IMG/VR virus record: IMGVR_UViG_2595698945_000001
DNA from: a virus
Taxonomy: Duplodnaviria; Heunggongvirae; Uroviricota; Caudoviricetes
Length of the DNA: 64,000 nt
Strand: one strand, 5' to 3'
Shown one piece after another: positions 33,913 to 37,519 of this stretch. The notes below the pieces were generated by a model that saw only the letters and a program-made list of their open reading frames with translations, made no database searches and was not told the DNA's origin. A program made the translations under genes and the position numbers. Numbering within the stretch: the first letter of the stretch is position 1; every line of letters begins with the position of its first letter.

Positions 33913-34244
33913 AGAAAATAGCCCTGGCTCTGGCGCTGCTCTCCCTCCCTGTCTACGCGGACACGCACGTCTATGAGTGTGAGATGTCAGTGGCCGAAGT
34001 GAAAAACGACGTGATCCGCAATGTTGTCAAAGCCAGCTACGGCGCGATGGTTGTGGACAGCGGCGAACAGTTTTATGTTGTGCGCGATGATCGCGTCCTG
34101 TCTTCCCCCTATCTCACCAAACGTAACGGCAAACTGTCTGGCGTGGGTGAAGATAAGTTCGTTTACAACAAATCAGGTGATGTCTACGGCGTTCACGCGA
34201 AGAACGCCAGCTACCTTTTCGATGACTGCAAGGAGGTTGGTTGA
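33909..34244 (+). CDS. Secreted protein (signal peptide)
   Basis: MKKIALALALLSLPVYA signal peptide. Confidence 0.45.
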   Translation: MKKIALALALLSLPVYADTHVYECEMSVAEVKNDVIRNVVKASYGAMVVDSGEQFYVVRDDRVLSSPYLTKRNGKLSGVGEDKFVYNKSGDVYGVHAKNASYLFDDCKEVG

Positions 34245-34456
34245 TGGCGGTTACACTGGCAGGTCTGGAAATCGAAAAAACAAGCGGCTACTGGCGTGCC
34301 AAAGGGTTTAAACAGACCGGCGTGCTGGAGCGTCTGGAACGTGAGGACGGTGTCATTGTCCACCAGCGTCGCGAATGGCGCATGTACGATCCGGAAACAG
34401 GTAAGCTCACGACGAAGGCCGGGACACTCTGGGGTCTGCTGAAGAAAATCCACTGA
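34241..34456 (+). CDS. Hypothetical protein
   Basis: ATGG overlap. 71 aa. Confidence 0.4.
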   Translation: MMAVTLAGLEIEKTSGYWRAKGFKQTGVLERLEREDGVIVHQRREWRMYDPETGKLTTKAGTLWGLLKKIH

Positions 34457-34464
34457 GAACACTA

Positions 34465-35065
34465 ACCACTGCGGTGAGTAGCCAGCTCACCGCGTGCGTA
34501 TCCGACTCATAACCACTGTGGTGAGTAGAACACCATTCAGGTATGCAATCCAACCACTGTAGTGAGTAAAACGACTGCCGTGATATCCGGTATCCACTGT
34601 AGTGAGCAAAGTAGCGATTATCGACGTCGCCATCCACTGTAGGGAGTAAACAGGCGTTCATTCGCAGCAAACAACCACTATAGCGAGTGATGGAATGCGC
34701 TCTCCAGCGGGTATCCACTATGGAGAGTAAACCTTCACTGTTTTCAGCGGATATCTACTCACTACAGTGGTTAGTAAACCCAGCCAACCGATTCTGCTCT
34801 CCACAGTGGATAGCCAATAACGAAGGGAACAACGATAACCACTATAGAGAGTGGGTTTAACAAGATACCCAGTGACCACTAACCTCGCAGCCCTTGATTC
34901 ATCTAGGTTTGTAACCACTAACATTTATTTCGTTGTTTGCGTGCCACTGCCTACAGTGGTTACTCTTCGGTTGCTGTTACTCACTACAGTGGATAGCGGA
35001 TTCCAGATAAACAAAAGGCTCACTACAGTGGATAGTGAGCCTTTCTACTCTCTACAGTGGTTGGG
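34465..35065. repeat. Iteron array (about 14 copies of CCACTGTAGTGAGTA / TACTCACTACAGTGG-type repeats) distal to repA
   Basis: Repeats read directly from the sequence: ccactgcggtgagta, ccactgtggtgagta, ccactgtagtgagta, ccactatagcgagtg, tactcactacagtgg, ctcactacagtggatag and others, in both orientations. Confidence 0.8.
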
Positions 35066-36130
35066 CTATTTACGAGTTTTAGCTTTGCGCAGCTCTTCGA
35101 GAATCGCCAGTTCTTCCTTGCTTAACATGACCATCTCACCGTCTTTTTCTTCAGGAACAACATCGATGATGTCCTCCTGATCATCACCAGGCAAGCTATC
35201 TTCCTGCTCTTCTGGTTCTTCCGGCGCAGCTTTAACTGGTGGCAATGCCGGGCGTAACTTCGGCCGCCTATAGTGGATGATGAAGTAGACCGAGCTGCCG
35301 CGCTTCACTTCGGTGTAATCGAGATAGCCGATCTCCCGCAGCTGCTCCATCGCCTTCCTGACTGTCGCGTTCTGGGTAATGGTGCGGCTGGTTAAGTTAA
35401 GTCTGGCGCGTAATCGAGCCAACGAGATTGGTGCCGGGTCAGGTGGCAAACTTTCGATGAAGGTGTAGAGCGCCTGCGCGGATTCTTTTCTGGAGAGTTC
35501 GTTGATTGCCCGGAGTTGCAGAAGAACCTTTTTGTCGAACTGATAGAGTTCGAAAATCTTAGGATCAGCCTGCAGCGAGACCGTGTCGTTCTTAGTGCTG
35601 TACTTTGCTGTCTGCACAAGGTGCGTCACGTAATACTCATCAGAGCCTTTACTGCGGAATGAGATAGTGTTTGTGGCGATACGAGTTAGAGAACTGTCCA
35701 GGCGCTTACGTAACTTCGCGGACGATCTGGCCGTTGGTATGCCACAGAGCCTGACGAACTCGACGAACGGTAACGTGACAGTATCGCCAACAACCTTGTG
35801 TTTGGCGAACGCGTGGATGATGCCTACCCACGTTTTGAAGTCGTTATCCATATCCAGACGAACGCCGGAGATCCTTATGTCTTCGTACCCTTCGGCTTTG
35901 GCCAGAGACAGCTGTTTGAGTTCAGCAGAGGCGTCCATAGAGACCATTTGCCCCTTTCTGCCCCTGGCGGTCGATTTCAGCGTCGGAACGAAGAGACCAA
36001 GACGCATCAGAGCAACAGGCTGAACTGTGTTGTTGGTGTTAGGAACTAACGTAACAACTTCGCCGGTCTTTTTGTCTGTTTCTGAGAATGCTTCAACGAT
36101 CGCTATGTTTTTATTGCCGTTTTCGCTCAT
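35066..36130 (-). CDS. repA: Replication initiator RepA, RepFIB family
   Basis: Strong resemblance to P307/F RepFIB RepA recalled from memory ([84 protein letters not shown]). Iterons on both flanks. Confidence 0.85.
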
Positions 36131-36840
36131 TCCAAGTGTCTCTTTTTATTCGACCGCTTTGGTGGCCTTTGCTGATTACAGTGGATAGTAGCACTCATCA
36201 CAGCGGTTATCCTACCGCCTATAGTGGTTTTTCTACTCTCTACAGTGGTTGGCTTGCTCTTCATAGTGGCTGATCTTCTCTCTATAGTGGATATCGATCA
36301 CCTCTAAGGCTATGCGGCACAAGGGTTTGCGGGGTGCGGGGATCTTTTTGGGTCTTTGTGGGTCTCTTTGGTTCTCTTTGGGATCTGAATTACTGGATCG
36401 GGCCTGTGTATAAAAATCAGGTAATTGCAAAACCAGCCATCACTCCCCTTCTGGGGATAATGTGTGGTCGAAACAAACACGCCTGAACGCAAATCTTCCA
36501 GTATGTCTATGAATATCAGCTACCTGCCGTAGAAAAACAGGCACTGAGTTATCCAGTTAAGACAATGTCTCCTACTCACTACAGTGGATACCGACCACTC
36601 TCCAGAGAGGTTGTTTTGCTCTTCATAGCGGTTATTATGCTCTCTACAGAGGTTACTTTCCTCCCCATAGTGGATAGTAACCCCCTCTCAGGCCAGTAAC
36701 CGCAACGGCTGGAGACGATCGGGGATCTCTTTTGATCTTCTGTAGGATCTCTCTGGGGATCTAATTATTGGATCGGGCCTGTGAATAATGGGTATAAGTA
36801 AAACAGGCATTTGCAAACATCGGTGCGCCTTGTCAGTTAT
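36131..36840. repeat. oriV/promoter region of repA: iterons (36173-36300, 36573-36690) plus a tandemly duplicated GATC-rich block (36335-36420 and 36716-36800)
   Basis: tactctctacagtggttgg, cttcatagtggctga, ctctatagtggatat; duplicated ggggatct...tggatcgggcctgtg(t/a)ataa units, each carrying several GATC sites. Confidence 0.7.
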
Positions 36841-36874
36841 CGTTGCCCCGGACAAAACTATTTGAATAAGAACT

Positions 36875-37519
36875 ATGGATCTCAAACGCACGCGCTGGGT
36901 TCGCCGTCTTGAAGATGGCTCCTACACCATTGAATCGAACACTAGCCTGAACAAACAGAAGTTGCTCTGCGACCTGTGCGGCATTGCGTCGAAGTGCCCG
37001 ATTAACGAAACCCGGCTCAAACTCCACGACGCCGGTGCGCACTTCCACCTGAACAGCTGCATACGTTACGTGCCACTGCTGGCATTTCGTAAACCGATCA
37101 TCGGATTGGACGCTCCCTACTTCAACACACTCCGCTCTGGTGTAACATGGCGGGACCGGGTCGAGCCTGGCAAACTCGTTTGTCTGGTTGAGGCTGATAC
37201 TGGAAATATCATCCGATTCGGGAGAGTCGATAAGGTCTACTCCGGCCCGGTGGATGAGATGCTGCGAAAACACAGCCGGTTTAACCATCTCTGCATGGGC
37301 GGAGAGAAGATCGAGAAGGTTGACGAAGTGATCCGCAAATCCTACGGACACTTCCTGAACGACGACAGCCTTCTCACAGCCATCTACATTCGCCATGTCG
37401 ATCGGGAGTTCGATACGGAGTATCACAGTGCTGAAGAGTTGAATCTTGTCGACCCTCGCCCAAAAGCTGGGGTAATCGACATCAGCGTTGCGCGTCAGAA
37501 GCCCTCTGAGACGTTTTAA
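36875..37519 (+). CDS. Hypothetical protein
   Basis: 214 aa. Confidence 0.45.
   Translation: MDLKRTRWVRRLEDGSYTIESNTSLNKQKLLCDLCGIASKCPINETRLKLHDAGAHFHLNSCIRYVPLLAFRKPIIGLDAPYFNTLRSGVTWRDRVEPGKLVCLVEADTGNIIRFGRVDKVYSGPVDEMLRKHSRFNHLCMGGEKIEKVDEVIRKSYGHFLNDDSLLTAIYIRHVDREFDTEYHSAEELNLVDPRPKAGVIDISVARQKPSETF

Follow-up and report, generated by a model that had tools for sequence, protein, structure and literature searches.

The described replicons that come closest to the locus treated here are oriR of P1 and the RepFIB family. The control region incA of P1 contains nine iterons. In the canonical FIB replicon, the upstream iterons BCDD'D'' are located at the origin together with a DnaA site, and the downstream iterons E-K exert control by handcuffing (PMC11983097). 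Methylation of the origin is reported to be essential for the replication of both P1 and ColV-K30 (PMC2865523). In the present study, we analysed the repA locus of a 64,000-nucleotide stretch of DNA from a virus of the Caudoviricetes (IMG/VR record IMGVR_UViG_2595698945_000001), and this whole stretch is called the window below. Positions 34400-36900 of the window are 100% identical to Salmonella phage SSU5 (JQ965645.1, 58762-61262). Judged from sequence comparison, the locus is fairly likely to be a theta replicon of the P1 oriR/RepFIB kind that maintains the phage-plasmid SSU5 as a plasmid prophage and in which the origin module is doubled. The replicon itself is known, being a member of the P1/RepFIB family; the doubled module is a variation in architecture, and the homology stands.

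An initial annotation of the window had named the locus a RepFIB-type replicon, and our searches agree with it. In Pfam, the RepA protein matched Rep3_N (E = 7e-11) and Rep3_C (E = 4e-4). Its identity is 59% to RepA of Escherichia coli IncFIB, 54% to that of IncFIB(K), 52% to the pKPHS1-type Rep and 49% over 267 amino acids (aa) to the 286-aa P1-type (IncY) RepA. The acidic tail of the SSU5 protein (~60 aa, residues ~295-354, window 35066-35250) is not found in this 286-aa P1-type RepA. Megablast with the replicon gave 340 related plasmid records, from Enterobacter, Escherichia, Yersinia (63 records), Salmonella (44) and Citrobacter. They are mostly ~100-120 kilobases (kb) long, the prediction for 320 is that they are non-mobilizable, and in PLSDB the relatives are typed IncFIB. 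These relatives are the known SSU5-like phage-plasmid group.

The iterons were located with a weight matrix made from the clear copies, and the whole 64-kb window and shuffled windows were used as controls. We found 25 iteron sites within 34463-36676, and 19 of the 25 score 24-33.5 bits; the best score outside the replicon was 13.1 bits in the 64 kb, and the maximum in shuffled windows was 17.7 bits. About 14 iterons had been reported by the initial annotation on the side of repA away from the doubled unit, and the scan returned exactly 14 there. In the two units upstream of repA (Table 1), three to four iterons each had been counted; there are in fact six and five, the weaker upstream copies (11.5-19 bits) being recognisable only through their register. 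Both orientations had been described on both sides of repA, which holds downstream only, as all 11 upstream iterons share one orientation.

Each upstream unit has the same order of parts, in which phased iterons are followed by a GC-rich spacer of ~40 base pairs (bp), then by GATC repeats of ~10-11 bp and then by a DnaA box. The local alignment of unit 1 with unit 2 gave z = 26 against shuffles, and the iteron and GATC parts are ~70% identical, so the presence of the unit in two copies, at the places where the initial annotation had put them, is well borne out. A module profile for nhmmer, made from the SSU5 blocks and two relatives, detected unit 1 with E = 1.7e-17 and unit 2 with E = 6.8e-25. 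The two copies had been called a tandem duplication; two copies there are, and they are not strictly head to tail, since ~140 bp of unrelated spacer lies between them. When this spacer was compared with the region downstream of unit 2, z was only 3, too weak a value for us to claim that the duplication reached the start of the 214-aa gene. Multiple Dam sites had also been noted for each unit. This description suits unit 2, whose block is unique in the 64 kb in reaching a density of four GATC or more per 80 bp and is a probable Dam/SeqA-sensitive unwinding region, but the content is unequal and unit 1 has only three sites, its GATC-less repeats reading GGGTCT or GGTTCT. The prediction of DnaA boxes and sites for the integration host factor (IHF), which the initial annotation had proposed, gave a DnaA box in each unit and one match to the IHF consensus, at 36415. 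The boxes TTATACACA and TTATTCACA occupy homologous positions and account for two of the four TTWTNCACA matches in the entire window. In phage Cyrano the unit 1 box is the perfect TTATCCACA, and relatives have two tandem DnaA boxes at the position of the unit 2 box. We also observed that unit 1 of SSU5, pMT1 and Cyrano has an extra 10-bp repeat, GGGTCTCTTT, in 36343-36382, which gives six repeats as compared with five in unit 2 and in all other lineages.

Table 1. Features of the SSU5 replicon and its borders (positions in the window)
Feature	Coordinates	Strand	Remarks
71-aa gene	34241-34456		flanks the replicon; P1 Cra-like protein according to the annotation of relatives
Downstream control array (incA / EFGHIJ-like)	34463-35063	mixed	14 iterons, consensus TACTCACTACAGTGGATA
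Downstream iterons (8)	34463, 34510, 34551, 34591, 34631, 34672, 34712, 34836	minus	
Downstream iterons (6)	34756, 34795, 34945, 34978, 35017, 35046	plus	
Two half-iteron-like motifs, GTRACCACTAAC	34872-34883, 34911-34922	plus	between distal iterons 10 and 11; 2 matches vs 0 expected
Terminator-like hairpin	35013-35045	minus	directly past the repA stop; 14-pair stem and T run, consensus match only
repA	35066-36130	minus	354-aa Rep3-family initiator; WH1 and WH2 domains, acidic C-terminal tail
Unit 1 (repA-proximal)	36170-36430		
Unit 1 iterons (6)	36170-36293	plus	starts 36170, 36192, 36213, 36234, 36255, 36276; 21-22 bp spacing
Unit 1 GC-rich spacer	36297-36335		
Unit 1 repeat block	36336-36401	plus	six ~10-11-bp GGGATCT-type repeats; GATC in 3 of 6 (36341, 36382, 36396)
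Unit 1 DnaA box, TTATACACA	36405-36413	minus	
Inter-unit spacer	36431-36572		~140 bp; weak DnaA-like sites TTATCCCCA (36452) and GTTATCCAG (~36549)
Unit 2 (repA-distal)	36573-36812		
Unit 2 iterons (5)	36573-36676	plus	starts 36573, 36596, 36617, 36638, 36659; 21-23 bp spacing
Unit 2 GC-rich spacer	36680-36715		
Unit 2 GATC-repeat block	36716-36776	plus	6 GATC in 36717-36771, 7-13 bp apart
Unit 2 DnaA box, TTATTCACA	36780-36788	minus	followed by a degenerate second box, GGGTATAAG, to 36798
214-aa gene	36875-37519		flanks the replicon; ASCH domain according to the annotation of phage Cyrano

The initial annotation had implied a recent or unusual duplication by which copy number or incompatibility would have been shifted; relatives, however, share both units, which the initial annotation itself had named as the sign of an ancestral duplication. 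The 750-bp two-unit region is at least 80% covered in 335 plasmid records. Plasmid pMT1 of Yersinia pestis CO92 has both units with DnaA-box and GATC positions identical to those of SSU5, both are also present in E. coli p1107-111K and in phage Cyrano (~80% identical overall), and in these three elements the differences between the two copies are conserved. For a wider survey, one genome per species was scanned by RepA alignment, which gave 80 loci with RepA identity of 62-99%, and the surveyed loci were mapped for GATC clusters, DnaA boxes and profile matches as well as for iterons, the latter de novo. The two-array layout was found in Kluyvera, Yersinia, Buttiauxella, Erwinia, Pantoea, Rahnella, Cedecea and Xenorhabdus, and the double layout extends to replicons whose RepA is only 62-79% identical. 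A recent tandem duplication specific to SSU5 has a single point in its favour, the two similar units in the window. With units merely ~70% identical to each other, and with both of them in all close and many distant relatives, we reject it as highly improbable. The SSU5 origin is elaborate in comparison with F, P307 and P1 but normal within its clade. In a full-text literature search covering SSU5, pHCM2 and pMT1, we found no account of the doubled module, of its spread or of the consistently lower number of Dam sites in the proximal copy, an earlier mention being possible.

The doubling is old and maintained. Two profile matches lie upstream of rep in 40 of 83 surveyed loci, and the module profile matches all 90 collected loci of the family, the P1-type block included (E = 2e-13). 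Single-module replicons are the pKPHS1 type, IncFIB(K), E. coli IncFIB, Salmonella IncFIB, those of Kosakonia and of large Pantoea plasmids, and the P1 type. In a neighbour-joining RepA tree, which is without support values and in which the P1 type is not placed, the single-module replicons fall outside one clade that holds the doubled ones. The simplest reading of the sequences is that a single, ancient duplication took place at the root of a large enterobacterial RepFIB-like clade, and it draws only on this RepA tree and on the shared pattern of GATC loss that is described below. Between SSU5 and Cyrano, conservation is 90% in the unit 1 iterons, 95% in the unit 1 block, 86% in the unit 2 iterons and 79% in the unit 2 block. 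The remaining parts reach only 62-67%, namely the GC spacer (64-67% in unit 1), the inter-unit spacer (62-63%) and the stretch up to the next gene. The functional parts form islands of conservation amid poorly conserved spacers, which indicates that both copies are under purifying selection.

By homology to P1 and RepFIB, the replicon is expected to work in the following way. Monomers of RepA would bind the phased iterons, two helical turns apart, and RepA and the host's DnaA, the latter at the adjoining box or boxes, would jointly open the neighbouring GATC-repeat block for helicase loading. Firing would require Dam methylation of the GATC block, and the hemimethylated state after firing would let SeqA sequester the origin. 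RepA bound at the repA-proximal iterons would repress its own promoter, and the 14 downstream iterons would keep the copy number low by titration of RepA and by handcuffing with the origin iterons. The suggestion of the initial annotation that the Dam-site clusters point to methylation-coupled initiation appears reasonable, because the GATC/DnaA block shows homology with that of the P1-type oriR and because of the methylation requirement reported for P1 and ColV-K30 (PMC2865523).

The two copies differ in what they have kept. The GATC count is higher in the distal than in the proximal copy in 40 of the 41 double loci and equal in the remaining one (means 5.5 vs 3.5), and the family-profile score is also higher for the distal copy in 40 of 41. 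The loss of GATC is patterned, as proximal repeats 2 and 3 have become GGTTCT, GGGTCT, GGAACT or GGCCT in lineage after lineage; proximal repeats 1, 4 and 5 keep GATC and the proximal DnaA box is kept. Within the doubled clade, seven lineage representatives (L012, L021, L024, L027/L045, L044, L048 and L060) have no detectable proximal block and an intact distal one. It is suggested that the distal copy (unit 2) is probably the main firing origin, since it still has its full complement of Dam sites and it is this copy that the lineages have kept. Unit 1, the proximal copy, would probably act mainly as the operator of repA, as the origin iterons of P1 do. It may in addition have the role of a secondary or auxiliary origin or of a partner for pairing in cis, because its Dam-poor block, which bears a DnaA box, is still constrained.

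Several observations weigh against this assignment of roles and against the single duplication. The proximal block is the best-conserved segment in the SSU5 clade (95%, as compared with 79% for the distal block), and such conservation means that it is no decaying relic and could be the copy that fires. At one locus only, L054, the proximal module is intact and the distal one is degraded. A consensus scan upstream of repA gave no convincing minus-strand sigma-70 promoter, a weak TGTAAT -10 within iteron 1 being found by eye only, and the operator role of unit 1 thus depends on the analogy with P1. In a tree of the ~100-bp blocks, the proximal and distal copies were not separated across lineages; for these short blocks the mean identities are 0.62 between proximal copies, 0.63 between distal copies and 0.59 between proximal and distal ones. 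Repeated duplication or gene conversion may therefore stand as an alternative to the single duplication. In addition, replication, Dam dependence, autoregulation and handcuffing are all carried over from homologous systems. Our confidence in the distal origin is moderate on account of the proximal conservation, the result of the promoter scan and the block tree.

The same evidence can be arranged in other ways. Unit 1, which adjoins repA as the origin does in P1 and in RepFIB of the F type, could be the working origin as well as the operator, with unit 2 as an accessory that exerts negative control in cis, by additional handcuffing or titration, as iterons past the origin do in IncFIB(K) and RK2, or that regulates the 214-aa gene. 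We consider this unlikely, although every single-module relative has its origin adjoining rep, unit 1 is the better conserved in the SSU5 clade in iterons as well as in block, and L054 has an intact proximal module and a degraded distal one. The four extra iterons that IncFIB(K) has past its one GATC block show that accessory upstream iterons exist in the family. However, a control element consisting of iterons only needs no five to six phased GATC sites and no DnaA boxes, and the distal copy keeps these in 41 of 41 double loci; moreover, in the seven lineage representatives named above it is the proximal GATC/DnaA module that has been lost and the distal one that is still present.

A second arrangement, in which both units are origins under one RepA, must be called improbable. 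The distal origin would be Dam-rich, open to sequestration by SeqA and fired once per cycle, and the proximal one, being Dam-poor, would escape sequestration; the latter origin might then serve, for example, hosts or states with low Dam or allow rapid re-initiation. The full set of parts kept in both units as islands of conservation between poor spacers would suit such a division, as would the loss of GATC from the same proximal repeats in diverse lineages with periodicity and DnaA box kept. On the other hand, the proximal module is decayed or lost in several lineages and is dispensable there, and ordinary non-phage plasmids share the architecture, which makes it unlikely that it serves to separate lytic from lysogenic replication. 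There is likewise only a small chance that both modules fire or that the pair forms a built-in regulatory loop in cis, with a methylation-sensitive and a methylation-insensitive origin in tandem. The reading that we prefer is still that of unit 2 as the main origin and of unit 1 mainly as the operator of repA.

The first ten iterons of the array downstream of repA are spaced by ~40-41 bp. Their number differs among close relatives, with 14 in SSU5 and in Buttiauxella (locus L011) and 13 in pMT1 of CO92 and in the Kluyvera loci, and this difference fits the length differences of ~41-50 bp in many megablast matches. Such variation in the number of downstream iterons could tune the copy number. 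The motif GTRACCACTAAC, which occurs twice within the array, resembles one half of the SSU5 iteron, and an identical copy is present at 518-529 in the pKPHS1-type locus L003, whose iterons are unrelated; these motifs could be left over from an exchange of cassettes or could be bound by another protein. The initial annotation had warned that automated tools might take the iterons for an array of clustered regularly interspaced short palindromic repeats (CRISPR), whose repeats would be near-identical, in one orientation and separated by unique spacers of uniform length. Judged by their sequences, no CRISPR caller having been run, the repeats do not fit such an array, since single copies deviate from the consensus by 0-6 mismatches and the downstream set is of mixed orientation. 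Tandem Repeats Finder reported only 21-bp arrays and one 10-bp repeat in the region. The iteron at 35017-35034 is embedded in the terminator-like hairpin past repA, and binding of RepA at this site could disturb the formation of the terminator, or vice versa. A search of the PDB sequences with RepA gave no match, nor did a search of NCBIfam, no Rfam covariance model matched 34200-37000 at E <= 0.1, and the 214-aa protein had no match in Pfam.

SSU5-like phage-plasmids and pMT1, the plague plasmid, use this replicon for their maintenance, and relatives bear resistance genes in clinical Enterobacterales. Knowledge of the origin module and of the iteron sets that control it is useful for replicon typing, for curing cassettes based on incompatibility and for the building of vectors. 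Here, moreover, nature has duplicated an origin that as a rule is also the operator of its initiator, so that the two roles could have separated. If it were true that both modules fire or that they form a loop in cis, this would be an undescribed layer in the control of iteron plasmids. The mechanism is otherwise textbook biology of P1 and RepFIB, and nothing in it is overturned.

Compared with the pKPHS1-type replicon of SSU5-like phage-plasmids from Klebsiella, the SSU5 replicon holds the same position in the backbone, between the cra-like and the 214-aa genes, and both of these genes are kept beside the replicon in SSU5-type and pKPHS1-type elements. The pKPHS1 type has one module adjoining rep and a different iteron, TACCGCTGACAGCATA, and its GATC/DnaA block is ~78% identical to that of SSU5 unit 2. 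More generally, plasmids of the pKPHS1, IncFIB(K) and IncY types have corresponding blocks with 76-80% identity to that of unit 2. When SSU5 36716-36874 was aligned with L003 2177-2340, the identity of ~78% was seen to set in precisely with the unit 2 GATC block and to continue into the 214-aa gene. As the homology begins at the GATC block, rep and the iterons seem to have been swapped as one cassette, and the GATC block, which is independent of the initiator used, may be the junction at which cassettes of rep plus iterons are exchanged between phage-plasmid backbones. In the IncFIB(K) plasmid pKP1-19 (L004 3196-3446), one GATC/DnaA module is accompanied by four iterons in both orientations between the origin and sopA, so that upstream iterons have been added there by another route than in SSU5.

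Among the described systems, the P1-type oriR, represented by the IncY locus L005, has the same order of parts as SSU5; outward from repA there are five iterons at 21 bp, TTTCCCTCCAGCACACATC, a GC-rich spacer, the GATC block and two tandem DnaA boxes. Its GATC/DnaA block is homologous to those of SSU5 at the DNA level, in both systems the downstream control iterons are of mixed orientation, and both are carried by phage-plasmids. They differ in the iteron (TTTCCCTCCAGCACACATC in P1, TACTCACTACAGTGGATA in SSU5), in the number of downstream iterons (14 in SSU5, nine in incA of P1) and in the number of origin modules, of which the P1-type replicon has one and SSU5 two. The RepFIB replicons of F, P307 and pO157 and REPI of pColV-K30 resemble SSU5 in having origin iterons with a DnaA site upstream and control iterons downstream. 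The E. coli IncFIB (p1658/97) and Salmonella IncFIB replicons have one upstream array and one GATC/DnaA module, whereas SSU5 has two modules and, with its 25 iterons, about twice their total. Several potential origins under one plasmid initiator are known from R6K (alpha, beta and gamma) and from F (oriV/oriS). The analogy of these plasmids with SSU5 is functional only, and in neither plasmid are the origins known to be paralogues of one whole module arranged in tandem.

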